In this document: positions 13,151-25,126 of the stretch, in pieces | How the letters are laid out: each line of letters starts with the position of its first letter | How positions within the stretch are numbered: position 1 is the first letter of the stretch | DNA from: Escherichia coli | GTDB taxonomy: Bacteria; Pseudomonadota; Gammaproteobacteria; Enterobacterales; Enterobacteriaceae | Assembly: GCA_005400705.1 (NCBI GenBank) | Contig: GCA_005400705.1_4079.1 | Length of the DNA: 64,000 nt | Strand: one strand, 5' to 3' | The notes under the pieces: model-generated | The model's database searches: none | What the model saw: the letters and a program-made list of their open reading frames with translations, nothing else | Told to the model about the DNA's origin: nothing | Translations under genes and position numbers: made by a program

Positions 13151-13155
13151 ATAGT

Positions 13156-13863: not shown

Positions 13864-13883
13864 TATAACCAGGAGTAAGCATC

Positions 13884-14117
13884 ATGATCGAACAAATTCA
13901 AACGACCACAAGCCGGAGCGGAACGAAAGTACATTACATCGCTGATACTGATAAAGGTGTACCCTATTGTGCTGTACACGTAAATACTGACGGTGACTAT
14001 TGGTTAACTGTATACGGGCGTTACTCGTTTGCTTTTAGTGCACATTGTAAGATCCTGGAAGTAGTGAAGCCTACCGGTAAGAATATCACGCCGGGAAAAT
14101 GTTTTACTAAGCACTAA
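13884..14117 (+). CDS. Hypothetical protein; paralog of 15039-15275
   Basis: 77 aa; shared GVPYCAVHVNT(D/E)G(D/N)YW(L/F)TVYG...PTGKNIT. Confidence 0.7.
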   Translation: MIEQIQTTTSRSGTKVHYIADTDKGVPYCAVHVNTDGDYWLTVYGRYSFAFSAHCKILEVVKPTGKNITPGKCFTKH

Positions 14118-14118
14118 A

Positions 14119-14185
14119 AAGTACTTGCATACTAAGTTTAAAAGCGTATAATACTTTATATCGAGGCGGGGGAATGGTTCCCGCC
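14119..14185 (+). promoter_or_regulatory. PeSL-type cassette
   Basis: aaagtacTTGCATact, TATAAT 14147-14152, hairpin ggcggggga-atgg-ttcccgcc. Confidence 0.6.
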
Positions 14186-14203
14186 TTTACTGAGGATTAT
14201 CTA

Positions 14204-14491
14204 ATGAGCAAAGTAATTAACTATACAGTACTAAGCAAGTCATTATCTATTAGCCAGTGCACCGATGGTTTTTGGCTGTACGATGAAACGCGTGGCATGA
14301 ATTTAGCTATGCGGGAGAAAACTGCTGAGGCGGCGTATTTACAAGCCCTGGAATACTACCAGGAACGTTTAAAGGAAGTAGAAAACAATTATCAAAATTT
14401 AAAAGAGAAAGTAGATAATTTCGTTTGTCAATTCGTTGACGATGACGAGGAAGACGGGCACTACTGCAACCGTTGCGGATCTTACAATTAA
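14204..14491 (+). CDS. Hypothetical protein with C-terminal Cys pair (HYCNRCGSYN)
   Basis: Track ORF 14174-14491 trimmed to ATG 14204 (MSKVINYTV); 95 aa. Confidence 0.6.
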   Translation: MSKVINYTVLSKSLSISQCTDGFWLYDETRGMNLAMREKTAEAAYLQALEYYQERLKEVENNYQNLKEKVDNFVCQFVDDDEEDGHYCNRCGSYN

Positions 14492-14554
14492 GTACTTGCA
14501 ATTAGTTTTCAGTACTGTATAATGGTTTACATCAAAGGGAGAAATGGTTCTCCC
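14490..14554 (+). promoter_or_regulatory. PeSL-type cassette
   Basis: agtacTTGCAAttagttttcAGTACTgTATAAT, hairpin gggagaa-atgg-ttctccc. Confidence 0.6.
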
Positions 14555-14573
14555 TGGTAATGAGGAAAATAAA

Positions 14574-14795
14574 ATGGCTAATATCACTACTCTTTCCCAA
14601 CTGGAAGCACTGGTTAAATCTATGCGGGAACATGCCGACAAAATCGGCGTACAAGATCCAGCCGTTTGCTTCTGCGACGAATTGAATGATGATACCCTGG
14701 TAATAGCAGAAGTCCAGGACGTTTCTAACTATTCCTCGCGTTACACTGGCGGCGTAGCAAATAAAGGTGACTTCTGTTTATACCTTACAAAATAA
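14574..14795 (+). CDS. Hypothetical protein
   Basis: ATG 14574 (MANITTLSQ) after SD gaggaaa; 73 aa. Confidence 0.65.
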   Translation: MANITTLSQLEALVKSMREHADKIGVQDPAVCFCDELNDDTLVIAEVQDVSNYSSRYTGGVANKGDFCLYLTK

Positions 14796-14796
14796 C

Positions 14797-14830
14797 AACG
14801 CGGGGAGATAATAACTCCCCGTTACTTTTT
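14797..14830 (+). terminator. Rho-independent terminator
   Basis: cggggag-ataataa-ctccccg followed by ttacttttt. Confidence 0.55.
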
Positions 14831-14959
14831 CAGTACTGAATCATTTAATAGACGGATCTCGGCACCCGGTGGGTTAGTGACTGTTTCGTCTTGATGTAGT
14901 AATTATGCCAGTACTGGATGCACTTGTCAACAATTATTTTTCAAATACTTTTTATTAAA

Positions 14960-15018
14960 ATACTTGCAATTAGTTTTTAAACGCGTATAATGTTTTGCAT
15001 AGGGGGAGCGGTTCCCCT
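14960..15018 (+). promoter_or_regulatory. PeSL-type cassette
   Basis: aatacTTGCAAttag, TATAAT 14986-14991, hairpin ggggagcggttcccc. Confidence 0.55.
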
Positions 15019-15038
15019 GGTAACTAAGGAATAATAAA

Positions 15039-15275
15039 ATGCTTGAACAAATCAAATCAACGTCTTCGAATGTAACGGGAACGGTAGCACACTTTACTAG
15101 TGATGAATCGCGGGGCGTTCCCTATTGTGCTGTACATGTAAACACTGAGGGTAACTACTGGTTTACGGTTTACGGTTCATATTCATTTGGACGGCCAGGG
15201 CATCAAAAAATTCTGGATAAAGTACAGCCAACGGGTAAAAATATCACTGCTGAAATGTTTTATAAAAAATCATAA
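15039..15275 (+). CDS. Hypothetical protein; paralog of 13884-14117
   Basis: 78 aa ORF. Confidence 0.7.
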   Translation: MLEQIKSTSSNVTGTVAHFTSDESRGVPYCAVHVNTEGNYWFTVYGSYSFGRPGHQKILDKVQPTGKNITAEMFYKKS

Positions 15276-15340
15276 AGTACTTGCAATTAGTTTTTAGTAC
15301 TGTATAATATTTTACATCGCAAGGGGGAGCGGTTCCCCCT
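15276..15340 (+). promoter_or_regulatory. PeSL-type cassette
   Basis: aagtacTTGCAAttagtttttAGTACTgTATAAT, hairpin gggggagcggttccccc. Confidence 0.6.
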
Positions 15341-15359
15341 GGTAACTAAGGATAATCAA

Positions 15360-15659
15360 ATGAAAATTGCAATCATCGCCCTGGCTTTATCTGTTTCCTC
15401 TTTCGCTGTTAATGCGTCATTAGATGTAAGTAGTGAAAAATTCATTCAGTGCACTGTTGCAATGACCGATGAAAGTACTGGCGAGATTGTTTTAAAGGAT
15501 TTAGAGATCCAGCCCGAAGCATTTAAAAACGGGCCGTTCCATGAAGAAGACGAAAAAGGTAGCACGACAATTTATTACGATGCAAGTACTAAACGCGGTT
15601 CGGTCACTGTTATGGATACTGAGAAAGTAACTCATACTGGCGTTATTAATTGCCGTTGA
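15360..15659 (+). CDS. Small secreted or periplasmic protein (predicted signal peptide)
   Basis: 99 aa; N-terminus MKIAIIALALSVSSFAVNA is signal-peptide-like. Confidence 0.65.
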   Translation: MKIAIIALALSVSSFAVNASLDVSSEKFIQCTVAMTDESTGEIVLKDLEIQPEAFKNGPFHEEDEKGSTTIYYDASTKRGSVTVMDTEKVTHTGVINCR

Positions 15660-15680
15660 TAGATACTACGGGGTAACATC

Positions 15681-15911
15681 ATGACTAAGCGAATTGTTTT
15701 ACTTAACGAAAGCAGTACTACACAACTACTTAACGCCGTGCATTATGATATTGAAACGAGCGTTAATCTTATCAGTACTGTAGTACTGTTGGACACTGGA
15801 AAGGTCGCCAATGATAAAGCGATTGCAGGTATACTAACGGATCTTGAGCCTGGTAGCAGTGCACCAATAACGTTAAATGGTAAAGTGTTTAATATTTTAC
15901 TCACTGATTAA
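15681..15911 (+). CDS. Hypothetical protein
   Basis: 76 aa ORF after short gap, followed by a terminator. Confidence 0.6.
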   Translation: MTKRIVLLNESSTTQLLNAVHYDIETSVNLISTVVLLDTGKVANDKAIAGILTDLEPGSSAPITLNGKVFNILLTD

Positions 15912-15916
15912 GTACA

Positions 15917-15945
15917 TAGCCCACCTGGTGGGCTTTTTTGTTTTT
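15917..15945 (+). terminator. Rho-independent terminator
   Basis: agcccacc-t-ggtgggct then ttttttgtttttg. Confidence 0.6.
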
Positions 15946-15992
15946 GTAGTATCGTAGTACTGAGATACTTTGAAAATAGTTTTAAAAAATAG

Positions 15993-16020
15993 TTGACATT
16001 ACCGCAGAAAAGCGTAGAAT
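15993..16020 (+). promoter_or_regulatory. Sigma70-like promoter
   Basis: TTGACA 15993-15998, 16 nt, TAGAAT 16015-16020. Confidence 0.5.
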
Positions 16021-16029
16021 GTATTACAT

Positions 16030-16110
16030 CAAGACGGGGAGCACTAAGTAGACCGCCAGTAAGTCGAACGAAAAACTGGACACGTCGAGAAAACTTTGAT
16101 ACACTAATAA
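16030..16110 (+). ncRNA. Diverged third copy of the structured leader element
   Basis: agacggggagcactaagtagaccgccagtaagtcgaacgaaaaactggacacg shares gacgggga, agtaag and acgaaaaact with the element at 13071-13150. Confidence 0.25.
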
Positions 16111-16143
16111 ACGTAAACTAAACTTTAATTGAGGATTTATAAA

Positions 16144-16626
16144 ATGGCTAATGTAAAATCATTCATCAAAGCACTGGTAGCAAATGAAACTAACGTCGCG
16201 GCAGAGATCCTGGCTGATCTGGATAACGATACCATGAAAGCGGTACGCAATAATTTTAACATCGCTTATAGTACTGCGAAAGAACTACAAGCAAATAAAG
16301 CGGCAGAAATTGAAGCGGCAAAGGCGGCCCGTGAAGCAGAACTACAAGCAACAATTGAAAGTATCCAGGCGGCAGTAGTTGGATTGGATCTGGAAGTAGT
16401 TACAGAGATGGCACAAAAAGCCCTGGCGGTTAAGTATGGGGAAGATAAGCCGGAATCTAAGCCTAAAAAATGGATTCAAAAACGTGTAGCGGTAGTACTG
16501 GACAACGGGGAAGAATATCTGATTCCGGTGCGTGGTAACTGCATTGCGGTAGTACTGGATGCGATTAACTCCAGTGGTATGACTCGCGAGGAATGGATCG
16601 AAGCTCATCGCAAAGTTGAAGCATAA
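16144..16626 (+). CDS. Hypothetical protein with N-terminal coiled-coil
   Basis: Track ORF trimmed to ATG 16144 (MANVKSF); Ala/Glu-rich heptad-like stretch AAEIEAAKAAREAELQATIESIQAA; C-terminal internal repeat VAVVLDN/IAVVLDA. Confidence 0.65.
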   Translation: MANVKSFIKALVANETNVAAEILADLDNDTMKAVRNNFNIAYSTAKELQANKAAEIEAAKAAREAELQATIESIQAAVVGLDLEVVTEMAQKALAVKYGEDKPESKPKKWIQKRVAVVLDNGEEYLIPVRGNCIAVVLDAINSSGMTREEWIEAHRKVEA

Positions 16627-16645
16627 CAATTAAAGTACTGAATCA

Positions 16646-16678
16646 CTAGCCCACCTTAAACGGTGGGCTTTTTTGTGT
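16646..16678 (+). terminator. Rho-independent terminator
   Basis: agcccacc-ttaaac-ggtgggct then ttttttgtgttt. Confidence 0.65.
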
Positions 16679-16824
16679 TTATCGTTTACCAGGCCACCAG
16701 CACCGCCTAGAAACGATTCTAACGCATTAAACTGATTATCTGATGCATTGCCCTAGCTGGTGGCGTTAAGGCTGTAAGAACGCGATTGAGAGCGTTTAAA
16801 GTATTTTGCAAAAAGTAATAAAAA

Positions 16825-16885
16825 GTACTTGCACGATTAAGAGATTAGCGTATAATGTTTTACATCGAGAGGGGGAAACGGTTCT
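16825..16885 (+). promoter_or_regulatory. PeSL-type cassette (imperfect hairpin)
   Basis: aaaagtacTTGCACgat, TATAAT 16851-16856, GC-rich gggggaaacggttctcc. Confidence 0.5.
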
Positions 16886-16911
16886 CCTTCCAAATCAAAG
16901 GAATTAAAACA

Positions 16912-17139
16912 ATGGCTATCGTAATCACTCGCGTAACTGGTACTACTGGCAATTCTTCTACTGTTGCTGTAATTACTAATAAGAAAGGTGCGGAATTGCA
17001 TTTTGCAATGGATAAATGGGCCGTTAATGAGTTCGGTCAGTGGGCAAGTGTAGCATACATTGAAACCTATCAAGTGCCGTCGATTAGTTTAACTGATTTG
17101 GGCGTTGAGCGTATCCTTTGCCTGGATGAATTAAATTAA
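16912..17139 (+). CDS. Hypothetical protein
   Basis: Track ORF 16855-17139 trimmed to ATG 16912 (MAIVITRV); 75 aa. Confidence 0.65.
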   Translation: MAIVITRVTGTTGNSSTVAVITNKKGAELHFAMDKWAVNEFGQWASVAYIETYQVPSISLTDLGVERILCLDELN

Positions 17140-17142
17140 AAA

Positions 17143-17206
17143 AGTACTTGCAAAGTAAATCAGATAAAGTATAATACATTACATCAAGGGGAGAAATGGT
17201 TCTCCC
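17143..17206 (+). promoter_or_regulatory. PeSL-type cassette
   Basis: aaagtacTTGCAAagt, TATAAT 17170-17175, hairpin gggagaa-atgg-ttctccc. Confidence 0.6.
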
Positions 17207-17225
17207 TGATAATGAGGAAACTAAT

Positions 17226-17369
17226 ATGAAAACTTGTCAATGTGGTAAAAAATCTATTACTGGTTTAAAGCGGGGCGTTGCACTTTGCCAGTACCATTAT
17301 AATTTACAAGTATGGGGTAAAGAATGGGCCGACCAGGTGGAAGCAGCAAAGAAAGCAAAAAGTAAGTAA
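17226..17369 (+). CDS. Small Cys-rich protein (possible zinc ribbon)
   Basis: 47 aa hand-translated (below track cutoff): MKTCQCGKKSITGLKRGVALCQYHYNLQVWGKEWADQVEAAKKAKSK; PeSL and SD upstream. Confidence 0.5.
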   Translation: MKTCQCGKKSITGLKRGVALCQYHYNLQVWGKEWADQVEAAKKAKSK

Positions 17370-17384
17370 AAATATTATCACAGT

Positions 17385-17420
17385 ACTATTGACATAGTTT
17401 GATAGTACTGGCATAATAGA
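17385..17420 (+). promoter_or_regulatory. Sigma70-like promoter with AGTACT flanking -35 and in spacer
   Basis: cAGTACTatTGACAtagtttgatAGTACTggCATAAT (TTGACA 17389-17394, CATAAT 17412-17417). Confidence 0.5.
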
Positions 17421-17450
17421 TTTTATCAAGACAACTAAGAGGAAATTAAA

Positions 17451-17795
17451 ATGGCTAATATCAACACTATCGCAAAACAAAATATCAACCTGTCTTCTGT
17501 TGAAGTTGTACATATTGCCGCTCGGCGTTGGTTCCAGGCTTCATATGGTAACACTTATTTCTCTTTAAGTGTAGACGTAGAAATTGATGGTAATTTTATT
17601 GAAGTAGTAAACGTGCCGTTCCAATATGGATACGGGGATCACTTTGACACTGTAGCAATGGAAGAATTTAGCAAGGTTATTAATATGGAAGATAAGGAGT
17701 TTACACGCGGATCGTACCTTTCACGTTTTTGCCGTGATAATAATATCACTGTTTACAGTTCGGTAACTGATGTTAAACGCAAAAAAGATCTTTAA
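17451..17795 (+). CDS. Hypothetical protein; paralog of 23420-23743
   Basis: 114 aa; shared C-terminus (VTDVKRKKDL vs YYDVKRKKDM) and internal GYG motifs. Confidence 0.7.
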   Translation: MANINTIAKQNINLSSVEVVHIAARRWFQASYGNTYFSLSVDVEIDGNFIEVVNVPFQYGYGDHFDTVAMEEFSKVINMEDKEFTRGSYLSRFCRDNNITVYSSVTDVKRKKDL

Positions 17796-17875
17796 TTCGC
17801 TTTACTTTATGCAGATACTTTGATATAGTGTCTGCATAGGGGAAAGAAATTAAATTAACTTAAGAGGAACGTATA

Positions 17876-18145
17876 ATGAAAAATATCAGTACTTTAATCG
17901 ATGCAGGTACACATGTTCGGCGGTCAATGGTTGCAACCAGTACTACAAAACAAGTAGCGAGCGGTTATCTTGTATTTGTGCACGATGGTAAACTCCTGGA
18001 ACGTTCAATCAATTTTGATGTTAAAAACAATTGCCGTTTTATTATCTTTCGCCGTGAACAATATAAGATCGACATTCCAGCGAAGCCCATTAGCGGTGCG
18101 TACAACGTGCAATCATTGTTTGAGCGTCAACCATACACCTATTAA
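17876..18145 (+). CDS. Hypothetical protein
   Basis: 89 aa ORF after SD aagagga. Confidence 0.6.
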   Translation: MKNISTLIDAGTHVRRSMVATSTTKQVASGYLVFVHDGKLLERSINFDVKNNCRFIIFRREQYKIDIPAKPISGAYNVQSLFERQPYTY

Positions 18146-18196
18146 TCAAAACATCGTTAGCGGTTGATTTAGGCCGCTTATATTGAGGATTATACC

Positions 18197-18469
18197 ATGA
18201 ACGTTAATCAAGTACTGAATGAGATCGAAAGCATCATTAAACCGATGAAGCGTACTGATGCTATGTTAACACCGGAAGAATGCCGCCTATATGAGCGTTA
18301 TAGCGTCGAACAAGTCCAGGCAATGGCTATGGCTACCACAGCCGTTAAACCGCCTGAGAATGCGTTACAGGACGTTACAGGGGATTATATCATCAATCCA
18401 GTACTAGGGAAGATGGCTGCAATCACCGAAGATCAACAAGACTACTTAAGCCAGTACTTAAAAGGTTAA
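18197..18469 (+). CDS. Hypothetical protein
   Basis: 90 aa ORF after SD tgagga. Confidence 0.6.
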   Translation: MNVNQVLNEIESIIKPMKRTDAMLTPEECRLYERYSVEQVQAMAMATTAVKPPENALQDVTGDYIINPVLGKMAAITEDQQDYLSQYLKG

Positions 18470-18474
18470 TTAAT

Positions 18475-18684
18475 ATGCTTACTGTACAGGATAAGATCGA
18501 CATCTTAAAGGTTAATATGTATGTGATTGATGCCGTACCTGGTAAAGTATTTGCATACGATGATAGTACTGTAAGCGATTTCTACTATAGCCAGGACGTG
18601 GGGGATCTTTCTGTACAGTCGGTTATTGAAAACGTAGTTAATGCAGCGTATGAGCATTTACTTTCAAATAGTACTTGCAATTAG
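18475..18684 (+). CDS. Hypothetical protein
   Basis: 69 aa ORF. Confidence 0.55.
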   Translation: MLTVQDKIDILKVNMYVIDAVPGKVFAYDDSTVSDFYYSQDVGDLSVQSVIENVVNAAYEHLLSNSTCN

Positions 18685-18733
18685 TTTTTAAACGCGTATA
18701 ATGTTTTACATGAAGGGGAGAAATGATTCTCCC
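18670..18733 (+). promoter_or_regulatory. PeSL-type cassette
   Basis: agtacTTGCAAttag, TATAAT 18697-18702, hairpin ggggagaa-atga-ttctcccc. Confidence 0.6.
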
Positions 18734-18753
18734 CACTAATTAAGGAATATGAA

Positions 18754-18900
18754 ATGAAAGCATCAAAAAAGAGTAATACCAAGAAAGCATGTTCACCTTT
18801 CGCTGGGGTATTCCCTTTACGTTTCGTTGATGAAGTGGTTTCCTACCCGCCGGGCCTTACTCCTGAGATGGTAGAAAGTTTGCGTAAATCTAAAAAATAG
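18754..18900 (+). CDS. Small basic protein
   Basis: 48 aa hand-translated: MKASKKSNTKKACSPFAGVFPLRFVDEVVSYPPGLTPEMVESLRKSKK; PeSL and SD aaggaa upstream. Confidence 0.5.
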   Translation: MKASKKSNTKKACSPFAGVFPLRFVDEVVSYPPGLTPEMVESLRKSKK

Positions 18901-18963
18901 TACTTGCAATTAGTTTTCAGTACTGTATAATGTTTTACATGAAGGGGAGAAATGATTCTCCCC
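18899..18963 (+). promoter_or_regulatory. PeSL-type cassette
   Basis: tacTTGCAAttagttttcAGTACTgTATAAT, hairpin ggggagaa-atga-ttctcccc. Confidence 0.6.
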
Positions 18964-18981
18964 AATAACAGGAGAAACAAA

Positions 18982-19134
18982 ATGAAACAATACAACGCTC
19001 GGTTTGATGTTACTATCGGTAACGGCAAAGGTCAATTCTCTTTCAGTACTCGCAAAAGTTATACAGAAAACTTCCTGCGTAATTGTGCACTGACCGCCGC
19101 TCAAATTAAACATTACTTTCAGGCTAAAAAATGA
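18982..19134 (+). CDS. Small protein
   Basis: ATG 18982 (MKQYNARFD) after SD caggag; 50 aa. Confidence 0.55.
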   Translation: MKQYNARFDVTIGNGKGQFSFSTRKSYTENFLRNCALTAAQIKHYFQAKK

Positions 19135-19220
19135 AATCATTAGCTTACTATAGTTCGGCCCTGGTCGGTACATTGATCGCGGCATTGTTAGTAACCTATC
19201 TATTCTTTATGGTGATTTAA
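19131..19220 (+). CDS. Small hydrophobic (single transmembrane) peptide
   Basis: 29 aa MKSLAYYSSALVGTLIAALLVTYLFFMVI; ATG overlaps previous stop (ATGA). Confidence 0.4.
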   Translation: MKSLAYYSSALVGTLIAALLVTYLFFMVI

Positions 19221-19364
19221 ATGAATCCAACAGGTTTAAATTATAAAAGTTGTTCGGCGTTTACGAAAGCAAATAAAGCGAATGCACGTAAAGCGAAAGT
19301 ACAGGAATACATCAAGCAAGGCATGACGCGAAAGGCGGCGATTCTAAAAGCTAAAAATAAATGA
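19221..19364 (+). CDS. Small basic peptide
   Basis: 47 aa MNPTGLNYKSCSAFTKANKANARKAKVQEYIKQGMTRKAAILKAKNK; ATG adjacent to previous stop. Confidence 0.4.
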   Translation: MNPTGLNYKSCSAFTKANKANARKAKVQEYIKQGMTRKAAILKAKNK

Positions 19365-19373
19365 AAAAAGTGG

Positions 19374-19401
19374 TTGACTCCGGTCAGCCATTTTGCTATT
19401 A
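19374..19401 (+). promoter_or_regulatory. Promoter inside the repeated 100 bp element (copy 1)
   Basis: TTGACT 19374-19379, 16 nt, TATTAT 19396-19401; followed by agcccacagggtgcataagtgtatc. Confidence 0.45.
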
Positions 19402-19489
19402 TATATTCATTGAGAGATAGCTCACTAGCCCACAGGGTGCATAAGTGTATCTATTATATAAGTATTGAGTACTGAAAACTATTTTTAAA

Positions 19490-19554
19490 AAGTACTTGCA
19501 AACTATCTCAATTGGCGTATAATGTTTTACATCGCAAGGGGAAACGGTTTCCCC
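19490..19554 (+). promoter_or_regulatory. PeSL-type cassette
   Basis: aaagtacTTGCAAact, TATAAT 19518-19523, hairpin ggggaaac-g-gtttcccc. Confidence 0.6.
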
Positions 19555-19574
19555 TGGTAATAAGGAAACGAATC

Positions 19575-19916
19575 ATGACTATCTCAATTGCTCAATCTAA
19601 CTTTGAAAACGAAATCATCGCCCAGGCACTGCGTTTAAATGATGGTCGGGCCGAAATTAATTACGGTTTCAATTCAGGCGGTTGCGAAAAATATCAGTAC
19701 TTTGTAACGGCTGATGGCGGTGTCCTGGGGATCAATACAGTTATTGTAAACATTCAGAAAATTAATTTCAATGATCCAGAAGATAGCCAGTTTTACATCA
19801 CGGGCGTGAACGTGAACTATGAGGATGATTATCTAACTGATGATCACACTGGCGAGAAGTTAGAAAGTGCATACGGTGAAGATGATTATCAGTCCGGTCC
19901 AGAAGATTTTGAATAA
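19575..19916 (+). CDS. Hypothetical protein
   Basis: Track ORF 19512-19916 trimmed to ATG 19575 (MTISIAQ); 113 aa. Confidence 0.65.
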   Translation: MTISIAQSNFENEIIAQALRLNDGRAEINYGFNSGGCEKYQYFVTADGGVLGINTVIVNIQKINFNDPEDSQFYITGVNVNYEDDYLTDDHTGEKLESAYGEDDYQSGPEDFE

Positions 19917-19927
19917 TATTAAAAAAT

Positions 19928-19990
19928 AGTTTGACAATAGATTATAGTACTGTATAATAAGTTACATCAAGGGGAGAAATGATTCTCCCC
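19928..19990 (+). promoter_or_regulatory. PeSL-type cassette with TTGACA -35
   Basis: tagTTTGACAatagattatAGTACTgTATAAT, hairpin ggggagaa-atga-ttctcccc. Confidence 0.6.
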
Positions 19991-20010
19991 ACTAACAAAG
20001 AGAAAACAAA

Positions 20011-20223
20011 ATGGCTAATATCTGCACTGTACTGAAAAATGCAAAACAAGTTTTATTTTCTGATCATGAAAATTTCAACAAGGATATTACGGGCGTTCGG
20101 AATATCAAAGATGTAAAAAGTGTTATGGGTATCTATTGCAATATGAAACGTGTTGGTACGTTCGGCGACAAAGTACTATACCAGGCAGGGGATTATAACT
20201 TTACATTAACCATTATCAATTAA
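20011..20223 (+). CDS. Hypothetical protein
   Basis: 70 aa ORF (MANICTVLKN). Confidence 0.65.
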   Translation: MANICTVLKNAKQVLFSDHENFNKDITGVRNIKDVKSVMGIYCNMKRVGTFGDKVLYQAGDYNFTLTIIN

Positions 20224-20237
20224 AATATATTACCAGT

Positions 20238-20272
20238 ACTATTAACAATGATTGATAGTACTGGCATAATAA
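20238..20272 (+). promoter_or_regulatory. Promoter variant
   Basis: ccAGTACTaTTAACAatgattgatAGTACTggCATAAT. Confidence 0.4.
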
Positions 20273-20314
20273 CTTTTATCAACAGTAGTTAACTTAACAA
20301 AAGAGAGAAACAAA

Positions 20315-20458
20315 ATGATCGCACTAGATTCATTCATCGACGCAGTACTGGCAAAAACTGGCGAGGATCTGACCGCAGAACAATACGCGATGATCGAACA
20401 ATGTCAGCAAAACGGTAAATCGGTGAAAGATACTGTTAAGATTATCCGCAAGATGTAA
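20315..20458 (+). CDS. Small acidic protein
   Basis: 47 aa hand-translated MIALDSFIDAVLAKTGEDLTAEQYAMIEQCQQNGKSVKDTVKIIRKM; SD aagagag. Confidence 0.45.
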   Translation: MIALDSFIDAVLAKTGEDLTAEQYAMIEQCQQNGKSVKDTVKIIRKM

Positions 20459-20461
20459 GAT

Positions 20462-20494
20462 TATAGCCCACTGGTTAACGCTGGTGGGCTATAA
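20462..20494 (+). other. Long hairpin (10 bp stem) without a T-run
   Basis: tatagcccac-tggttaacgctg-gtgggctata; contains GCTGGTGG. Confidence 0.4.
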
Positions 20495-20563
20495 TTCATT
20501 ACCCTATACAATGCCAGTACTCAACCGTTTATCTCGTTAGAATGCGTTACAGGACGTTTACCA

Positions 20564-20761
20564 ATGATTAGCATGAAATCAGTACAAAAACAAATAGAAA
20601 CATTATCAAAAATTAAACGTAAACAGTACTCGTTAGAATATACAATCAATGGTAACTATCATCTAATGAAAGAGAATAATTTTATCGTCATTGATGAATC
20701 ATTGCAAGTTATTAGTATAGTACTGAAAGCATTAATCAATGACAGAAAAAAATTAAAATAA
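20564..20761 (+). CDS. Hypothetical protein
   Basis: 65 aa ORF. Confidence 0.5.
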   Translation: MISMKSVQKQIETLSKIKRKQYSLEYTINGNYHLMKENNFIVIDESLQVISIVLKALINDRKKLK

Positions 20762-20763
20762 TC

Positions 20764-20796
20764 TATTGACAATATCCTCCAGTACTGGCATAATAC
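20764..20796 (+). promoter_or_regulatory. Sigma70-like promoter
   Basis: TTGACA 20766-20771, 17 nt spacer with ccAGTACTgg, CATAAT 20789-20794; followed by about 290 bp of ORF-free leader. Confidence 0.5.
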
Positions 20797-20859
20797 TTAC
20801 ATCAAGACGAGAACGTCACCAACCCATAGGGTGCACAAATGTAACTATATAATATCGAT

Positions 20860-20950
20860 CAATAAATGATCAAAAAAGTACTGGATCAATTTAGCATAAG
20901 GCGTATAATTCTGATCAATTCTTGATCAAAGGCAATATACGCAGTTGAAT
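20860..20950. repeat. GATC / tGATCAa cluster
   Basis: Five GATC sites within about 85 bp (cgatcaataaatgatcaa...ggatcaat...ctgatcaattcttgatcaa). Confidence 0.55.
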
Positions 20951-21090
20951 TTATATAGACAGTACAAAGGCGTTACTATCCGTGGTAATGCTGGTGGATA
21001 TGTAGTATCATATGGTTTGAATAAGATAAACACTAGTAGTATTATTGTAGCATTACAGTACTATAGTATTTTTATAATGAGGTTAAAATA

Positions 21091-21348
21091 ATGGCAGTAG
21101 GATACGCGAAAGACGGGGCCGAACAAGACGAGATTCATGCAGTGATTCAGGCCGCCGTTAACCACGCTAGAAAGCAAATTAACGCACAAAGAGAATCACT
21201 GGTACATTGCCTCGACTGCGGCGATAAAATTCCTGAGAATCGACGCCAGGCCGTTATAGGGTGCATGTATTGTATTACTTGCCAGGAGGATCATGATAGT
21301 ACTTTTAAAAGAGATCCGCGTAATTGTTGGCATAGATCTATGAGATAA
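21091..21348 (+). CDS. TraR/DksA-family C4 zinc-finger protein
   Basis: 85 aa; CLDCGDKIPENRRQAVIGCMYCITC fits CxxCG-x2-IP-x2-R...CxxC of the TraR/DksA zinc finger. Confidence 0.65.
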   Translation: MAVGYAKDGAEQDEIHAVIQAAVNHARKQINAQRESLVHCLDCGDKIPENRRQAVIGCMYCITCQEDHDSTFKRDPRNCWHRSMR

Positions 21349-21352
21349 AAAG

Positions 21353-21386
21353 TAATTGACAGTACTGAAAGATAGTGTATAATGTT
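21353..21386 (+). promoter_or_regulatory. Sigma70-like promoter
   Basis: aaTTGACAgtactgaaagatagtgTATAATgttttatatc. Confidence 0.5.
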
Positions 21387-21412
21387 TTATATCTTAACTG
21401 AGGATAGAAATC

Positions 21413-21769
21413 ATGGGAATACAACATATCACGCGTACTACTGACAATGGCGAGATCACTGGTTATCAAGTACAGGGCAAAGTAGCACAATTGCAGTACT
21501 GGTTTGTTAAACGTGGAATCATTGCACCGGATCTTGATTATGACCGTGTAGCGTTTATTGATTCTCTTTATGTTGATCCTGATAGTCGGGGCAATGGTGA
21601 AGGTAACGAATTAATGAATGCCTTTATCGATGCCGCCGATGATTCAGATTGTATCATCTTAGAATGCGATACGGGAGAAGATAACGCCTTTAATCTTAAA
21701 GAATGGTACGAAGGTTTCGGATTCGAGGTATTGATAGATAGTGAATATCCTATCATGATTTTATCATAG
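21413..21769 (+). CDS. Small GNAT-like acetyltransferase (putative)
   Basis: 118 aa; LYVDPDSRGNGEGNELMNAF resembles GNAT motif A (V-x-P-x2-RG-x-G-x-G). Confidence 0.45.
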   Translation: MGIQHITRTTDNGEITGYQVQGKVAQLQYWFVKRGIIAPDLDYDRVAFIDSLYVDPDSRGNGEGNELMNAFIDAADDSDCIILECDTGEDNAFNLKEWYEGFGFEVLIDSEYPIMILS

Positions 21770-21830
21770 TACTTGCATTTAGTTTTCAGTACTGTTATAG
21801 TACTTGCATCAAGGGGAAACATCTTCCCCT
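21768..21830 (+). promoter_or_regulatory. PeSL-type cassette with weak -10
   Basis: tagtacTTGCATttagttttcAGTACTgttatag, hairpin ggggaaac-atc-ttcccc. Confidence 0.45.
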
Positions 21831-21847
21831 ACTAAGAGGAAATAAAA

Positions 21848-22036
21848 ATGGAAAACTTATCAAGTATTTTAGTACAAGATGATTTCGGTAATCCTGGAAG
21901 TGCTATCATTGTTCGGGGTAATAAAGCAACGTTTGTTATTGCTGGTGGACCCGTACAGCGTAGCATTAAAAATAATGCTGTTACCATTAATAATGTACGC
22001 TATCGCTTAGATAAAGAATTGATTCATAAACTGTAA
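21848..22036 (+). CDS. Hypothetical protein
   Basis: 62 aa ORF after SD agagga. Confidence 0.6.
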   Translation: MENLSSILVQDDFGNPGSAIIVRGNKATFVIAGGPVQRSIKNNAVTINNVRYRLDKELIHKL

Positions 22037-22039
22037 AAA

Positions 22040-22104
22040 AGTACTGGACAATAGATTATAGTACTGTATAATAAGTTACATGAAGGGGAGAAATGATTCT
22101 CCCC
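22040..22104 (+). promoter_or_regulatory. PeSL-type cassette
   Basis: agtacTGGACAatagattatAGTACTgTATAAT, hairpin ggggagaa-atga-ttctcccc. Confidence 0.55.
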
Positions 22105-22122
22105 AGTACTGAGGAAAGAAAA

Positions 22123-22335
22123 ATGCAAGGTCAACTAATCGTTCGTAAATGGTCTGATACTAACGCTAAACCGTGGGATGTACAATACATCGGCCCCAAT
22201 GGTGAATCCAGATATCAACCAGGTGTAACGCATAGTACTGAGCAATTCGCCGCCGCTCATCGTGAACGTCTGTTACAATCAATGCAGCAAGGTTCCGGTG
22301 AAAAATTCATTCAGGATCATTGGCTGAAAGATTAA
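22123..22335 (+). CDS. Hypothetical protein
   Basis: ATG 22123 (MQGQLIVRK) after SD gaggaaag; 70 aa. Confidence 0.65.
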   Translation: MQGQLIVRKWSDTNAKPWDVQYIGPNGESRYQPGVTHSTEQFAAAHRERLLQSMQQGSGEKFIQDHWLKD

Positions 22336-22337
22336 AA

Positions 22338-22401
22338 AGTACTTGCACAGTACTGAATAAAGTGTATAATGTTTTATATCGAGAGGGGAATAGTTCCCCT
22401 C
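22338..22401 (+). promoter_or_regulatory. PeSL-type cassette
   Basis: aagtacTTGCACAGTACTGaataaagtgTATAAT, hairpin gaggggaa-tag-ttcccctc. Confidence 0.6.
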
Positions 22402-22421
22402 CTAACAAAAAGGAAAGTATA

Positions 22422-22595
22422 ATGATCCAAGTAGAATTATCAGTACTGAAAGATCTATTTTATCGGTTAGGTACTAATGGCGAGTATCCTAAAAGTGATA
22501 CCGCAAAACTTTTTGTATCACTCGACTTATGGCAACGCGAACAATTAGTAATGTCGTGGCGTAAAGGTAAAGCAGATCGCGAGGTGAAAGCATGA
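22422..22595 (+). CDS. Small protein
   Basis: ATG 22422 (MIQVELSVL) after SD aaggaa; 57 aa. Confidence 0.55.
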   Translation: MIQVELSVLKDLFYRLGTNGEYPKSDTAKLFVSLDLWQREQLVMSWRKGKADREVKA

Positions 22596-22741
22596 AAGAA
22601 TTCTTATTTGAAGTAGTGTTTCAAGGTGTCGGTAATAACCAACTGATTCGATCAAGTGGTTATAATGTTAACCAGGCATGGAATAACATTAAACAAATGT
22701 ACCCTAACGCTATCACCTATCGCAACCCGAAAGAAGTTTAA
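22592..22741 (+). CDS. Small protein
   Basis: 49 aa hand-translated MKEFLFEVVFQGVGNNQLIRSSGYNVNQAWNNIKQMYPNAITYRNPKEV; ATGA overlap with previous stop. Confidence 0.45.
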   Translation: MKEFLFEVVFQGVGNNQLIRSSGYNVNQAWNNIKQMYPNAITYRNPKEV

Positions 22742-22758
22742 AAATAATTGAAAAAGGG

Positions 22759-22787
22759 ATTGACTCCGGTCAGTCCCTTTGCTATTA
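22759..22787 (+). promoter_or_regulatory. Promoter inside the repeated 100 bp element (copy 2)
   Basis: gggaTTGACTccggtcagtccctttgcTATTAT; -35 sits in near-palindrome gggattgac/gtcagtccc. Confidence 0.5.
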
Positions 22788-22874
22788 TATACGCATAGAA
22801 ACAAATCAGCCCACCGGGTGCATAAATGTATCTATTGTTTGCTGGTGGCTAGTACTGAAAACTATTTTTAAAAA

Positions 22875-22906
22875 GTACTTGCATTGTACTTAGAATCAAG
22901 TATAAT
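22875..22906 (+). promoter_or_regulatory. PeSL-type promoter driving structured leader (copy 2)
   Basis: aaagtacTTGCATtgtacttagaatcaagTATAAT. Confidence 0.55.
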
Positions 22907-22915
22907 GTTTTACAT

Positions 22916-22990
22916 CAGGACGGGGAACGAAATAAGTAACTTCCCGTTAAGTAGCCCAGGAGTAAGGCACACGAAAAACTCCCCTGATAA
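22916..22990 (+). ncRNA. Conserved structured RNA element, copy 2
   Basis: Identical over about 90 bp to 13071-13160. Confidence 0.35.
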
Positions 22991-22996
22991 AATAGT

Positions 22997-23024
22997 TTGA
23001 CAATAGAAAGTAAACGAGTATAAT
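22997..23024 (+). promoter_or_regulatory. Second promoter after the structured element
   Basis: TTGACA 22997-23002, 16 nt, TATAAT 23019-23024. Confidence 0.5.
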
Positions 23025-23057
23025 ACTTACATCAACCACTGATAAGGAAACATTAAA

Positions 23058-23333
23058 ATGCGGATTCTACTGACAGCTAACGAAATCGAACAAGTACTGA
23101 CTACTAACCTGGAACAATGGAAACGTGATGCAGATATCCAGGCGGTTCAATGGCTTAACGATAAGTTAACGCCGGATGACTTAAGCAAGATTGTAGATCC
23201 TCAATTCTACGAAGATATCCACGACACCGCGTTAAGCGTCGAGGATGTACTTGATAAGCACTACATTGATACTGATTTACAGGTTTACGGTCGTAAAAAC
23301 TTTATCACTATCCACGACATTTACAATAATTAA
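23058..23333 (+). CDS. Hypothetical acidic protein
   Basis: 91 aa ORF after SD aaggaaa. Confidence 0.65.
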   Translation: MRILLTANEIEQVLTTNLEQWKRDADIQAVQWLNDKLTPDDLSKIVDPQFYEDIHDTALSVEDVLDKHYIDTDLQVYGRKNFITIHDIYNN

Positions 23334-23398
23334 GTATTGACAAAGTATCTTAGTACTGTATAATAGTTTACATCAAGTGAGGGGAAACGGTTCCCCTC
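23334..23398 (+). promoter_or_regulatory. PeSL-type cassette (tattgacaaagta class)
   Basis: gTATTGACAAAGTAtcttAGTACTgTATAAT, hairpin gaggggaaac-g-gttcccctc. Confidence 0.6.
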
Positions 23399-23419
23399 CT
23401 AACAAAGAGAGAAATAAAA

Positions 23420-23743
23420 ATGGCTATGATCCTTACCCAGAAAGTAGAACTGAAAATTGTAACCTCCTTTGACATTAAAGTTAATCGCTGGACTGATCGG
23501 AACGGCAATACTTACCACTCTTGCTACGTGTCTGCATTGATTGGTGATCGTTGGGAAGACCTGGGACACGAAACTTTTACATACGGTTACGGTACGCAAG
23601 GCGAATACACGGGCTTGGAGATCATTAAAGAAACCGTTATAGGTTTCAACCCGAAAGAAAAAGTTATTCACCGCATCGAAAAAGAGATTAACAAAGAAAT
23701 AACAGTTCGCTACTACGATGTAAAACGTAAGAAAGACATGTAA
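23420..23743 (+). CDS. Hypothetical protein; paralog of 17451-17795
   Basis: 107 aa ORF. Confidence 0.7.
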   Translation: MAMILTQKVELKIVTSFDIKVNRWTDRNGNTYHSCYVSALIGDRWEDLGHETFTYGYGTQGEYTGLEIIKETVIGFNPKEKVIHRIEKEINKEITVRYYDVKRKKDM

Positions 23744-23761
23744 TAGAATCCATTTAAAGTA

Positions 23762-23796
23762 CTATTTGACATTACACAGATAGTACTTTATAATAG
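23762..23796 (+). promoter_or_regulatory. Sigma70-like promoter (homolog of 12135-12170)
   Basis: aaAGTACTaTTTGACAttacacagatAGTACTtTATAAT. Confidence 0.55.
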
Positions 23797-23838
23797 ACTC
23801 TAGCTTGTAGTACTAACTTAACTAATAGGATGTATACC

Positions 23839-24234
23839 ATGATTACTAAATTCTACGCTACCCGTGAAGCTGCCCGTATTGTTGCACGCGAGGAAGGAGC
23901 AGCATTTAAAGACATGGGCAAAGATGCACCGAAAGGCCAACGCTGGGCCGTACAGTTCAAAGAGATCTCTGATATTGTGAATTCACCGGAGCCAGTACTG
24001 ACAGCAGCAGAACAGAAGAAAGCTGATGAACTGTCAGCAGTTCTTAACGCTCAAGATGACTTTATCGCGGGTTCTGATATTAAAGTTTCCGTAAATTCGA
24101 ATGCATGGACTCACGCGGATCATCTGGCTAACTTGAAGCGTCCAAGTGTACTGATTCGCAACCAACGAGAGATCCGCCACGACCGCAAGGGAAACAGTGT
24201 TACTGTATTCAGTAAACGCCGCCAGGTTATCTAA
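23839..24234 (+). CDS. Hypothetical protein; paralog of 12207-12473 with central insertion
   Basis: ATG 23839 (MITKFYATREAARIV...); 131 aa. Confidence 0.65.
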   Translation: MITKFYATREAARIVAREEGAAFKDMGKDAPKGQRWAVQFKEISDIVNSPEPVLTAAEQKKADELSAVLNAQDDFIAGSDIKVSVNSNAWTHADHLANLKRPSVLIRNQREIRHDRKGNSVTVFSKRRQVI

Positions 24235-24256
24235 TAACTTGCAGTACTAACAACAC

Positions 24257-24284
24257 GGCGGGTTCAGTTCCCGCCTTTTTTTTA
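24257..24284 (+). terminator. Rho-independent terminator
   Basis: ggcggg-ttcagtt-cccgcc then tttttttt. Confidence 0.7.
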
Positions 24285-24298
24285 TAGGATAAACTAAA

Positions 24299-24553
24299 AT
24301 GATGAAGGTACAACTATCTAAAGATAATATCTTGCGGGTACACTATAAAGCACCACAGAGAATCATCACAAAGGCCGTACAGCTTGCTAATGAGTTTATT
24401 AATGGTAGTCTATTACCCAGGAAGTTAAGCAACGGGAAACTACGTGTTATCGATGTAGACACTAACAATAGAATAGTAATTGAGAGTACTGGAAAAATTA
24501 ATCTATATGAACACCAACAATACAATAAAAAAATAAAACTAATATCACGTTGA
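24299..24553 (+). CDS. Hypothetical protein
   Basis: 84 aa ORF. Confidence 0.5.
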   Translation: MMKVQLSKDNILRVHYKAPQRIITKAVQLANEFINGSLLPRKLSNGKLRVIDVDTNNRIVIESTGKINLYEHQQYNKKIKLISR

Positions 24554-24580
24554 CAGTACTCAATTGTTTTAGTATTATGT
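24548..24580 (+). promoter_or_regulatory. Sigma70-like promoter (duplicate module A)
   Basis: TTGACAgtactcaattgttttagTATTAT; near-identical to 24824-24856. Confidence 0.5.
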
Positions 24581-24606
24581 ACACATACCAACACGGGAGA
24601 AACAAA

Positions 24607-24825
24607 ATGAAATTATCTAAAATCGAAAAGAAAACTATTGATGAAGCAGTTAAGCACGGTTATACCTTTCGTAATGATTCACATTTTACCAATTTTCAAC
24701 AAGGGTATCGTACTATTAAAAAACTAATTGACAAAGGTTTATTAGTTGAAGTCAATAACGGCAATGGCATTGAGTATCAACCAACACAGGACGCATTTTA
24801 TTTTAAGAAATATAATATTATCTAA
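24607..24825 (+). CDS. Hypothetical protein
   Basis: Track ORF 24550-24825 trimmed to ATG 24607 (MKLSKIEKK); 72 aa. Confidence 0.6.
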   Translation: MKLSKIEKKTIDEAVKHGYTFRNDSHFTNFQQGYRTIKKLIDKGLLVEVNNGNGIEYQPTQDAFYFKKYNII

Positions 24826-24856
24826 TTGACAGTACTCAAATGTTTTAGTACTATAT
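24824..24856 (+). promoter_or_regulatory. Sigma70-like promoter (duplicate module B)
   Basis: TTGACAgtactcaaatgttttagTACTAT; same leader accaacacggg(g/a)a(a/g)aaacaaaATG as at 24580-24606. Confidence 0.5.
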
Positions 24857-24883
24857 GTACATACCAACACGGGGAAAAACAAA

Positions 24884-25126
24884 ATGATTACTTTAGAAAA
24901 ACGTATCAAAGAAACTACATCGCTGGTGGAACTGTTAACAGTACTGAAATGTAAAACAACACCATTCAGCACGCCGGACTTTATTAATATGGTTGATGTT
25001 AATGGTCGCTATCGCATCACGGTCGAACAAGGAGCGGCGAAAGTATTCAGTACTAAAAACACCAAGGAAGTGATCCACGCCGTTAATGTTAAAAAAGTAG
25101 TTGCCATTGATAGTAAAGTACTGTAA
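24884..25126 (+). CDS. Hypothetical protein
   Basis: 80 aa ORF. Confidence 0.6.
   Translation: MITLEKRIKETTSLVELLTVLKCKTTPFSTPDFINMVDVNGRYRITVEQGAAKVFSTKNTKEVIHAVNVKKVVAIDSKVL

Follow-up and report, generated by a model that had tools for sequence, protein, structure and literature searches.

The window analysed here, a 64,000-nucleotide stretch of contig GCA_005400705.1_4079.1 deposited under Escherichia coli, is by its sequence DNA of an Asteriusvirus jumbo phage (121Q/PBECO4-like): the 4 kb around the repeat described below share 90–96% identity with the 121Q/PBECO4 group of Escherichia jumbo phages (Asteriusvirus, 348–386 kb). Small open reading frames (ORFs) on the + strand occupy 11–30 kb of the window, and a cassette of ~100 bp is present in this region in four copies (19354–19458, 22740–22840, 25740–25840 and 28185–28285), as a sequence-only reading of the stretch had proposed. 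The 22-mer GGGATTGACTCCGGTCAGTCCC occurs at 22756, 25757 and 28202 with 0–1 mismatch, where shuffled sequences predict 0 occurrences, and the copy at 19370 is a diverged form, GTGGTTGACTCCGGTCAGCCAT, whose changes are compensatory. Three repeat families (D14, D16 and D20) recover all four copies, and families D1–D3 and D7 correspond to the early promoter modules located downstream of them. In the four-copy alignment, the invariant parts are an A-tract, TTGACTC.GGTCAG, TTTGCTATTATATA and CCCAC.GGGTGCATAA.TGTATC. The further promoter that had been noted 60–120 bp downstream of each copy is indeed present, with the distance from −35 to −35 (117–142 bp) slightly exceeding that range. The copies are not the ends of one large segmental duplication, the alternative that the same reading had raised: pairwise blastn of 3-kb regions revealed unrelated flanking genes, and collinear similarity between copies starts sharply 20–22 bp before TTGACT, just past the upstream stop codon, and ends 72–207 bp downstream. 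These sharp limits and the unrelated flanking ORFs rule out such a duplication.

The first layer of the cassette is a palindrome that carries the −35 element of a promoter. In each copy, it starts 3–15 nt past the stop codon of the upstream gene and has a UCCG or UUCG loop followed by TTTGCTATTAT. Consistent with the initial description, all four sites scored as promoter-like (TTGACT-17-TATTAT with TGn, preceded by AAAAAA) in a consensus scan, and all four were at the same time terminator-like (12 pairs, a 4-nt loop, then GCTATTATAT), with a short U-tract after the hairpin (UUU/UUUU-GC-UAUUAU). We collected 22 distinct homologues from at least six phages (the window, 121Q, RaK2, CBB, GAP32 and uncultivated relatives), in which the stem could be aligned without gaps. 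Of the 198 pair cells of the 9-bp stem, 99.5% are paired, and sliding the partner columns lowers the pairing to 19–56%. The outer four pairs, which were not part of the selection pattern, all display two-sided changes (G-C, A-U, U-A, C-G), for example GGGA/TCCC, GTGG/CCAT, GTAC/GTAC and AAGG/CCTT. The inner five vary on the 3′ arm alone (U-G/U-A, U-A/U-G, G-C/G-U) while TTGAC remains constant, and the commonest pair at one inner position is U.G (19/22). The hairpin-type promoters number 26, and every one is on the + strand of its source; where gene orientation is known, this is the gene-sense strand. Homologues have been annotated as an ARNold terminator in G17, an ARNold stem-loop in GAP32 and a terminator in Munch.

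The palindrome had originally been taken for an operator, that is, the dyad GGGATTGAC/GTCAGTCCC would be bound by a dyad-specific repressor controlling the promoter, and the box downstream would be a second dyad site. The dyad does overlap the −35 element and is kept among the three closest copies; moreover, the palindrome CAGTACTG is hugely over-represented in the phage, so that DNA palindromes may matter. However, an operator would be expected to keep both half-sites, whereas here the outer stem covaries, only the TTGAC arm is invariant and G.U (T.G in DNA) dominates one position, a mismatch that breaks a DNA dyad. This is the pattern of an RNA hairpin read from the sense strand. Furthermore, the position after a stop codon, the flanking A-tract and T-tract and the UUCG-type tetraloop fit a terminator, and box units driven by unrelated promoters have no such dyad. 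We therefore consider an operator extremely unlikely. The TTGAC arm appears frozen because the same letters form the −35 element of the TTGACT-17-TGnTATTAT promoter. Overall, it is well supported in silico that the palindrome is an intrinsic terminator of the upstream early gene that doubles as a sigma-70 promoter. An RNA hairpin of 9–12 bp with a UCCG/UUCG tetraloop and a U-rich tail would end the upstream early transcript, placing the 3′ ends of the upstream mRNA in the UUUGCUAUU tract; with TTGAC in the 5′ stem arm and TGnTATTAT in the U-tract region, host RNA polymerase would restart ~30 nt past the termination point. One DNA segment would thus be under two constraints, as a terminator stem and as a −35 element, such that one arm is frozen and the other varies within the pairing rules.

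The second layer is a short conserved box, CCCAYMGGGTGC, of which there are 11 copies in the window, all at 10.76–28.29 kb. A search with GCCCACCGGGTGC allowing up to two mismatches gave 10 matches versus 0.13 expected, at 19428, 22809, 25810, 28255 and 12874 on the + strand and at 10779, 12932 and 14862 on the − strand; the remaining two (15919 and 15921) fall in an unrelated terminator palindrome and are not box copies. A looser pattern and a covariance model added 20823 (+), 11006 (−) and a degenerate copy at 10938 (+). Over the whole window, the covariance model returned 10 strong matches and one weak match, and nothing credible in the other 44 kb. The three − strand matches are the inverted copies that the sequence-only reading had pointed out; its description of the box as palindromic applies only in part (CCC-N3-GGG). 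The promoters of the window copies differ in kind, being either hairpin-embedded (TTGACT/TATTAT) or of the form TTGACA-17-CATAAT or TATAAT with CAGTACTGG in the spacer. We extended the set to 79 distinct copies from the window, K64-1, CBB, GAP32, RaK2, 121Q, Serratia phage BF and uncultivated genomes. Every one of these 79 copies is preceded by a promoter with 8 or more matches to the 12 consensus positions (10 or more in 66), 53 have a TGn extended −10 and 46 have CAT at the expected start site. The distance from the end of the −10 to the box is 21–22 or 25–29 nt, and the orientation of the box relative to the −10 is fixed. Because of this fixed distance and orientation, the box is best regarded as part of a transcript and not as a free-standing dyad site.

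What follows the box differs between copies. In 28 copies, nearly all of them on the + strand and including cassette copies 1–3, the next early promoter lies 50–88 nt past the box start, with one minus-strand exception at 132 nt. In 17 copies, a convergent partner is found at a fixed spacing of 58 or 76 nt with the tails abutting, an arrangement that recurs in phages of the E. coli, Pectobacterium, Cronobacter and Erwinia types. At least 16 copies have an intrinsic terminator, mostly 50–75 nt past the box, which predicts a discrete RNA of ~100 nt. This layout, non-coding, intergenic and with its own promoter and terminator, is found for the − strand copy at 14873, whose unit (14930–14790) ends at a bidirectional terminator (14821–14801), and for at least 16 copies in relatives, whereas the four cassette copies run into the next promoter and gene and lack it. 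Since all copies have in common only the promoter and the first ~50 nt of the RNA, that stretch appears to be the payload.

Convergent pairs with fixed spacing are located at 12821–12993 and 10912–11062 in the window and at 984–1100, 3794–3910 and 20816–20932 in CBB. Read-through across such a pair would form a perfect box/antibox stem of ~17 bp (−50 kcal/mol and a z-score of −6.4 for the CBB pair), which would probably be cleaved by RNase III or strongly impede transcription. The gene CBB_7 (CBB 3793–3966, minus strand, ‘hypothetical protein’) exactly overlies a convergent box pair and is probably a spurious gene call.

The RNA launched at these promoters presents, ~15–22 nt past the predicted start, a variable, covarying 5′ hairpin (stem 1), followed by the near-invariant 12-nt box CCCAYAGGGUGC and a conserved 15-nt tail. 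Its conserved core, from 3 nt before the box to 27 nt past the box start, reads UAR-CCCAYAGGGUGC-nGARnUGYRUCYAUW and is preceded by an A-rich segment. Stem 1, present in ~60 of the 79 copies, consists of 3–5 bp with a purine-rich loop of 4–9 nt (GAGAAA, GCGAAA, AGAUAA and AGAACAA among others) and ends 4–6 nt before the box. A hairpin finder detected 32 distinct stem sequences over the 79 copies, a few off-position matches included, with shuffled controls far lower. In a box-anchored ungapped seed of 17 sequences, chosen by hairpin register and biased to that extent, stem 1 is 97% paired with two-sided changes at all four pairs. The covariance model R1 finds 87 copies in 15 sources; over 82 distinct sequences, stem 1 is 93% paired versus 23–53% when slid, again with two-sided changes at all four pairs (133 double-changed cells), and 0 of 500 shuffles reach the observed value. 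An independent metagenomic set (76 copies, 36 loci) gave the same result for stem 1. RNAalifold predicts stem 1 together with a box hairpin, RCCC-AYA-GGGU, which is 98.8% paired, the informative variants among the 82 sequences being two CCU...AGG (U-A) and two U.G. No convincing helix beyond these two was found in the box-anchored ungapped alignment. In single folds, the tail pairs with the 5′ end or with the stem-1 loop (AGAUA/UAUCU, AUAGA/UCUAU), but these pairings are not consistent across copies and were rejected.

An alternative helix can be drawn between GGGUG and YRUCY located 8 nt downstream; it is 97% compatible with the sequences, with one-sided transitions and mostly G.U pairs, and compatibility falls to 89% if it is lengthened to 7 bp. 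This raises the question of a small attenuator, in which the partner taken by GGGUG, upstream CCC or downstream YRUCY, would decide whether a ~50-nt abortive RNA or read-through results. The sequences are compatible with either helix at 97% or more, the copy at 10943–10962 was scanned as terminator-like, and about ten copies have T-runs past the tail. However, the one-sided, G.U-rich variation of the second helix, the lack of a U-tract after it in most copies, including all four cassettes, and the fact that no ligand or protein suggests itself make an attenuator very unlikely.

The promoter-proximal position of the module, always in the same orientation, is also what would be expected of a cis-acting processive antitermination or anti-pausing signal, similar to HK022 put, lambda nut or the rrn leader, through which polymerase would resist the terminators of the early region. 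The boxB-boxA-boxC order of rrn and the nut sites offer a parallel to the succession of a non-conserved hairpin, a conserved 12-nt box and a tail. Moreover, the region contains 24 terminator-like sites versus 10.8 expected, seven of the 11 copies point in the gene direction, and putL, located directly downstream of PL, works without any protein (PMC9378689). Yet a read-through signal for genes makes no sense in the at least 16 copies that have their own terminator within 50–75 nt or in the 17 that face a convergent partner. In addition, the module offers only hairpins of 3–5 bp and 4 bp where put has two long stem-loops, and no antiterminator protein is known in these phages. We regard antitermination as quite unlikely.

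Table 1. Cassettes, box units and associated promoters in the window.
Feature	Position	Strand	Description
Copy 1, hairpin	19367–19394	+	AAAGTGGTTGAC-TCCG-GTCAGCCATTTT; upstream ORF stop 19364; −35 TTGACT 19374–19379 in 5′ arm
Copy 1, promoter	19374–19402	+	Sigma-70 TTGACT-17-TATTAT, TGn extended −10; predicted start A ~19409 (in CAT)
Copy 1, predicted box RNA	19409–19456	+	Stem 1 UGAG-AGAUAG-CUCA 19411–19424, linker CUAG; covariance-model score 63.5 bits
Copy 1, box and tail	19429–19440 (box)	+	Box CCCACAGGGUGC, then conserved tail AUAAGUGUAUCUAUUA
Early promoter after copy 1	19496–19578	+	TTGCAA-16-TATAAT, GC-rich 5′ untranslated region (5′UTR) hairpin, Shine-Dalgarno, ATG 19576
Copy 2, hairpin and promoter	22753–22788	+	Hairpin 22753–22780; stop 22741; TTGACT 22760 -17- TATTAT to 22788
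Copy 2, predicted box RNA, short form	22795–22837	+	A-rich linker AUAGAAACAAAUCAG instead of stem 1; box 22810–22821, tail; 37.9 bits
Promoter after copy 2	22879–22906	+	Module equivalent to that after copy 1
Copy 3, hairpin and promoter	25754–25789	+	Stop 25742; TTGACT 25761 -17- TATTAT
Copy 3, predicted box RNA, short form	25796–25838	+	Box 25811–25822; 43.8 bits
Promoter after copy 3	25878–25905	+	Module equivalent to that after copy 1
Copy 4, hairpin and promoter	28199–28234	+	Stop 28184; TTGACT 28206 -17- TATTAT
Copy 4, predicted box RNA, short form	28241–28283	+	Box 28256–28267; tail diverged to GUAUCCAAAA; 42 bits
Promoter after copy 4	28348–28376	+	TTGACA-17-GATAAT
Box unit	10761–10846	−	TTGCTT-16-TATAAT; stem 1 AGUC-GAGAAA-GACU; box 10790–10779; faces iteron region and minus-strand genes
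Convergent pair	10912–11062	both	Degenerate + box CTGCTAGGGTGC at 10938 (13 bits); − box 11006–10995, promoter 11062–11035
Box unit, left of convergent pair	12821–12904	+	TTGACT-17-CATAAT, no hairpin; stem 1 UGGC-AGAUAA-GCCG; box 12875–12886
Box unit, right of convergent pair	12914–12993	−	TTGACA-17-TATAAT 12993–12965; box 12943–12932
Stand-alone small-RNA-like unit	14790–14930	−	TTGACA-17-CATAAT 14930–14902; stem 1 GAC-GAAACA-GUC; box 14873–14862
Box unit	20766–20852	+	TTGACA-17-CATAAT; stem 1 GACG-AGAA-CGUC; box 20823–20834

The location of these units (Table 1) points to a terminal repeat. The homologue of window 22740–22840 in phage vB_Ec-M-J, at 13998–14098, falls within the annotated direct terminal repeat (DTR) of that phage (1–21525), and the repeat region therefore maps to the DTR, which by this alignment corresponds roughly to window 8743–30267, ~21 kb of early genes. 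The DTRs of Sharanji and CBB are 20,668 and 22,456 bp long, respectively; in CBB, 23.5 kb were examined and gave 12 copies, all of them within the DTR. By the covariance model, this window has 11 copies, K64-1 has 8, CBB 12 and GAP32 11; overall, each Rak2-like jumbo phage examined has 7–12 almost unchanged copies in its terminal repeats. A 101-bp query detected the element in 64 phage records, all Rak2-like, whose host labels are Escherichia, Klebsiella, Salmonella, Erwinia, Pectobacterium, Cronobacter and Serratia. Likewise, strict-pattern matches in IMG/VR are limited to Rak2-like genomes of 345–378 kb and one 109-kb fragment. No true box copy was present in 185,579 bacterial and archaeal species genomes; the three strict-pattern matches, in metagenome-assembled genomes of Ruminococcus, Spirochaeta and Sulfurovum, were all taken as chance, since two score 14–15 bits and the Sulfurovum one (27.7 bits) has no promoter at the family spacing. 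In blastn comparisons with two phages of a different genus, CBB and GAP32, hardly anything but box elements is similar across 10–30 kb of the window (segments 10750–10792, 12845–12906, 19353–19477, 22731–22860, 25748–25859 and 28195–28287, plus one early promoter), and identical stem-1 variants reappear in different genera. Searches against Rfam (4227 models) gave nothing at gathering thresholds over the whole window and nothing at an E-value of up to 1 at any box, and a tRNA/tmRNA scan of the window found none. Literature searches on 121Q, PBECO4, CBB, RaK2, phAPEC6 and Sharanji turned up generic promoter and terminator counts only and no description of the element.

The same region is rich in Chi sites (GCTGGTGG): 12 occur at 10266–28321 versus ~0.5 expected, all in the terminal-repeat region and 10 of them on the + strand, and two (22841 and 28314) lie directly 3′ of cassettes. 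K64-1, CBB, GAP32 and 121Q display a similar + strand clustering, with 7–8 sites per 18–30 kb versus ~0.1 expected, and in some relatives a Chi site lies within the spacer of a box-RNA promoter. Terminally clustered Chi sites have been described in the lambdoid phage LLS (PMC12315714), and by analogy the clustering suggests RecBCD-dependent protection or recombination of the terminal repeats.

The sequence-only reading had offered two interpretations of the repeats, as regulatory modules and as recombination hotspots. The former is supported by the analysis; the latter is plausible, with collinear-block breakpoints against 121Q falling at cassette or promoter edges in the one genome pair compared. 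Taken as the whole explanation, the units would be recombination joints or selfish mobile promoters, shuffled in the manner of PeSL elements or arranged as REPIN-like inverted pairs, with the box kept by gene conversion or spread. The repeats are intergenic only and their flanking genes unrelated; relative to 121Q, the gene at 25969–26368 has been replaced between two promoter modules; inverted pairs of fixed spacing exist in several genera; and PeSLs are documented to mediate such shuffling. Gene conversion, however, leaves unexplained the invariance of the box across otherwise dissimilar genera, the compensated divergence of stem 1 and the strong promoter at a fixed distance and orientation in every copy; nor was any transposase-like partner seen, although no search aimed at one was made. 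As a sufficient account, recombination is unlikely, but joint behaviour is compatible with the main function and probably coexists with it.

Where the minus-strand genes give way to the plus-strand early genes, 1.3 kb are non-coding and contain, at 10435–10594, an array of ~20 tandem 8-bp iterons, (A/T)(G/A)GA(C/T)GGCT, which is flanked by three box units and further promoters. Close to the left edge of the terminal repeat, this array is a candidate for an origin or for a set of protein-binding sites. The possibility that the box element itself acts as DNA, either as primer-RNA origins (T4 oriF/oriG-like R-loops) or as sites for terminal-repeat replication or packaging proteins, draws on this neighbourhood, on the restriction of the units to the terminal repeat, on the AT-rich DNA after the box and on the convergent pairs, which could prime both ways. 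Eleven origins in 20 kb are, however, implausible, the covariation of stem 1 with G.U pairs points to RNA, and units lie between ordinary early genes, so that a role as DNA is highly improbable.

Collectively, the comparisons establish in silico a conserved, promoter-coupled and structured module under strong purifying selection, and we infer that it works at the RNA level through recognition by a single conserved partner. The reading we favour, with a probability of roughly 0.6, is a two-layer cassette: a terminator/promoter hairpin followed by a promoter-launched conserved RNA module that functions as an early small RNA or leader and is recognised by a protein. The new transcript would open with the ~50-nt module, in which the box folds as RCCC-AYA-GGGU or pairs GGGUG with YRUCY and the tail reads nGARnUGYRUCUAU. 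Host polymerase would produce this RNA abundantly and immediately early from 11 promoters per terminal repeat (8–12 in the relatives examined), and the near-invariant core would be recognised by a single conserved partner, be it a protein of the phage or host machinery, for instance RNA polymerase. In the four + strand cassettes, the module may additionally provide the early gene that follows with a leader and a tandem promoter upstream. We thus rank an early small RNA or leader first, put/nut-like antitermination as less likely, and an attenuator or a replication origin as weaker still.

Several observations weigh against this interpretation. The pairing of the box hairpin is barely tested by variation, its sequence being almost invariant, and the box hairpin and GGGUG:YRUCY are mutually exclusive and about equally compatible with the data. 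Single-sequence folds of the window copies are no more stable than shuffled ones (z −1.3 to +0.4), and three of the four cassette copies have an A-rich linker in place of stem 1. Covariance-model alignments lean towards the structure of the model, and the independent stem-1 lineages number ~20–30, far fewer than the cells counted. A DNA reading of the 12-mer is equally possible. Neither a partner protein nor a complementary target was found, the window containing only chance-level 8–9-mers complementary to the box. Finally, the RNA itself, its start sites and termination at the hairpin are all predictions from sequence.

Since the box RNA is the most conserved nucleotide sequence of the terminal repeat across genera, it likely marks a key step of host takeover. 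A bolder proposal, which we hold tentatively and think rather doubtful, is a novel class of regulatory RNA confined to Rak2-like jumbo phages, made in bulk in the first minutes of infection from 8–12 strong host-type promoters per terminal repeat and either reprogramming host RNA polymerase in a put-like manner, with an unrelated fold, or acting as a decoy that sequesters a defence protein or a conserved host factor. Also considered, and dismissed for want of real similarity, were CRISPR-repeat mimics, CsrA or Hfq sponges, a DnaA box, an ops/RfaH-like site, a tRNA-Thr anticodon-stem mimic and the tmRNA PK1 region. Irrespective of function, the element represents a candidate new family of noncoding RNAs (ncRNAs), and a covariance model is now available for its annotation. 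Rak2-like jumbo phages (121Q, PBECO4, RaK2, K64-1, GAP32, CBB) are candidates for phage therapy; to our knowledge, their early programme is essentially uncharacterised, and most genes of the terminal repeat are ORFans.

Other features of the window accompany the cassettes. An early promoter family with at least 24 sites at 10044–28817 has the form AAAAAGTACTTGCA-N16-GTATAATGTTTTACAT followed by a GC-rich 5′UTR hairpin (e.g. GAGAGGGGGAAATGGTTCTCCCTC) and a Shine-Dalgarno sequence; this hairpin and stem 1 of the box RNA occupy the same 5′-proximal position. The 8-bp palindrome CAGTACTG occurs 71 times in the window versus 0.85 expected (e.g. at 10753, 12835, 14909, 20780 and 25849) and is similarly enriched in related phages (30 kb of K64-1 contain 64 copies). 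Its early-region sites are found in promoter spacers, immediately ahead of the −10 (cagtactgGCATAAT or cagtactgTATAAT), and, in the form TTCAGTACTGAA, after box RNAs; at 44–64 kb, the palindrome is partly a coding motif (FQxSTV) of a paralogous family. It might be recognised by a phage regulator or by a modification enzyme. The terminators at 15918–15934 and 16648–16669 have stems AGCCCACC...GGTGGGCT, in which the 5′ arm is identical to the start of the box (AGCCCACC), and half of such a terminator may have given rise to the box or be mimicked by it. Outside the early region, five tandem paralogous units of ~1.2 kb, each beginning with ATGTTACCTTTTGTTAGAATGTTTGATTATGGGAA, occupy 400–5400 on the minus strand, and a second tandem array of paralogues with a period of ~450–480 bp is located at 45684–47750.

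Among known systems, the closest parallel is the PeSL of T4-like phages, a repeated intergenic cassette in which a stem-loop overlaps a strong sigma-70 promoter (Arbiol et al. 2010, PMC2839356; Comeau et al. 2014, PMC4122927). The PeSL stem-loop terminates transcription as well as rrnB T1, and the cassette serves as a recombination joint in the shuffling of ORFans (PMC2839356, PMC4122927). Similar to PeSLs, the repeats described here are intergenic, ~100 bp long and located in early ORFan-rich regions; an AT-rich tract precedes their consensus sigma-70 promoter, and the stem-loop overlapping this promoter is predicted to end upstream transcription. Gene replacements between relatives are bounded by PeSLs; in the one pair compared here, the window and 121Q, the breakpoints lie at cassette or promoter edges. 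They differ, however, in that the −35 element is itself the 5′ stem arm, whereas the PeSL stem lies between the −35 and the −10 or over the −10. Moreover, the cassette promoter leads into a structured RNA module and then a second promoter with its own 5′UTR, with the ATG ~170–200 nt downstream, so that the Shine-Dalgarno sequence and start codon typical of the 3′ end of the PeSL motif are absent from the cassette. The phages are also Rak2-like jumbo phages and not Tevenvirinae, which suggests that PeSL-style regulatory cassettes reach beyond the classical T4-like phages.

For the RNA module, the comparison is less direct. HK022 put, a ~70-nt RNA with two long stem-loops and a triplex, binds the zinc-binding domain of the RNA polymerase β′ subunit and suppresses terminators in cis (PMC9378689). 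The module shares with put, nut and the rrn leader the predicted position as a promoter-proximal element of nascent RNA, and its hairpin and conserved box resemble the layout of nut and rrn, but there is no match in sequence or structure, and many box copies are terminated or convergent. In the Pseudomonas jumbo phage PA5oct, the DTR is transcribed early, host polymerase is relied on throughout infection, and the DTR yields two unannotated, very abundant ncRNAs that account for 2–5% of phage reads (PMC7318152). These offer an analogy in their terminal-repeat location in a relative of the Rak2-like group, although they are 236 and 451 nt long, single-copy and derived from RNA-seq, with no motif or structure reported (PMC7318152). 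Finally, a strong constitutive promoter, a short terminated RNA and paralogues sharing one conserved core recall the multicopy small RNAs of bacteria and the lambda PR′ transcript (6S RNA), from which the box RNA differs in that its core is 5′-proximal and four of its copies run on into genes.

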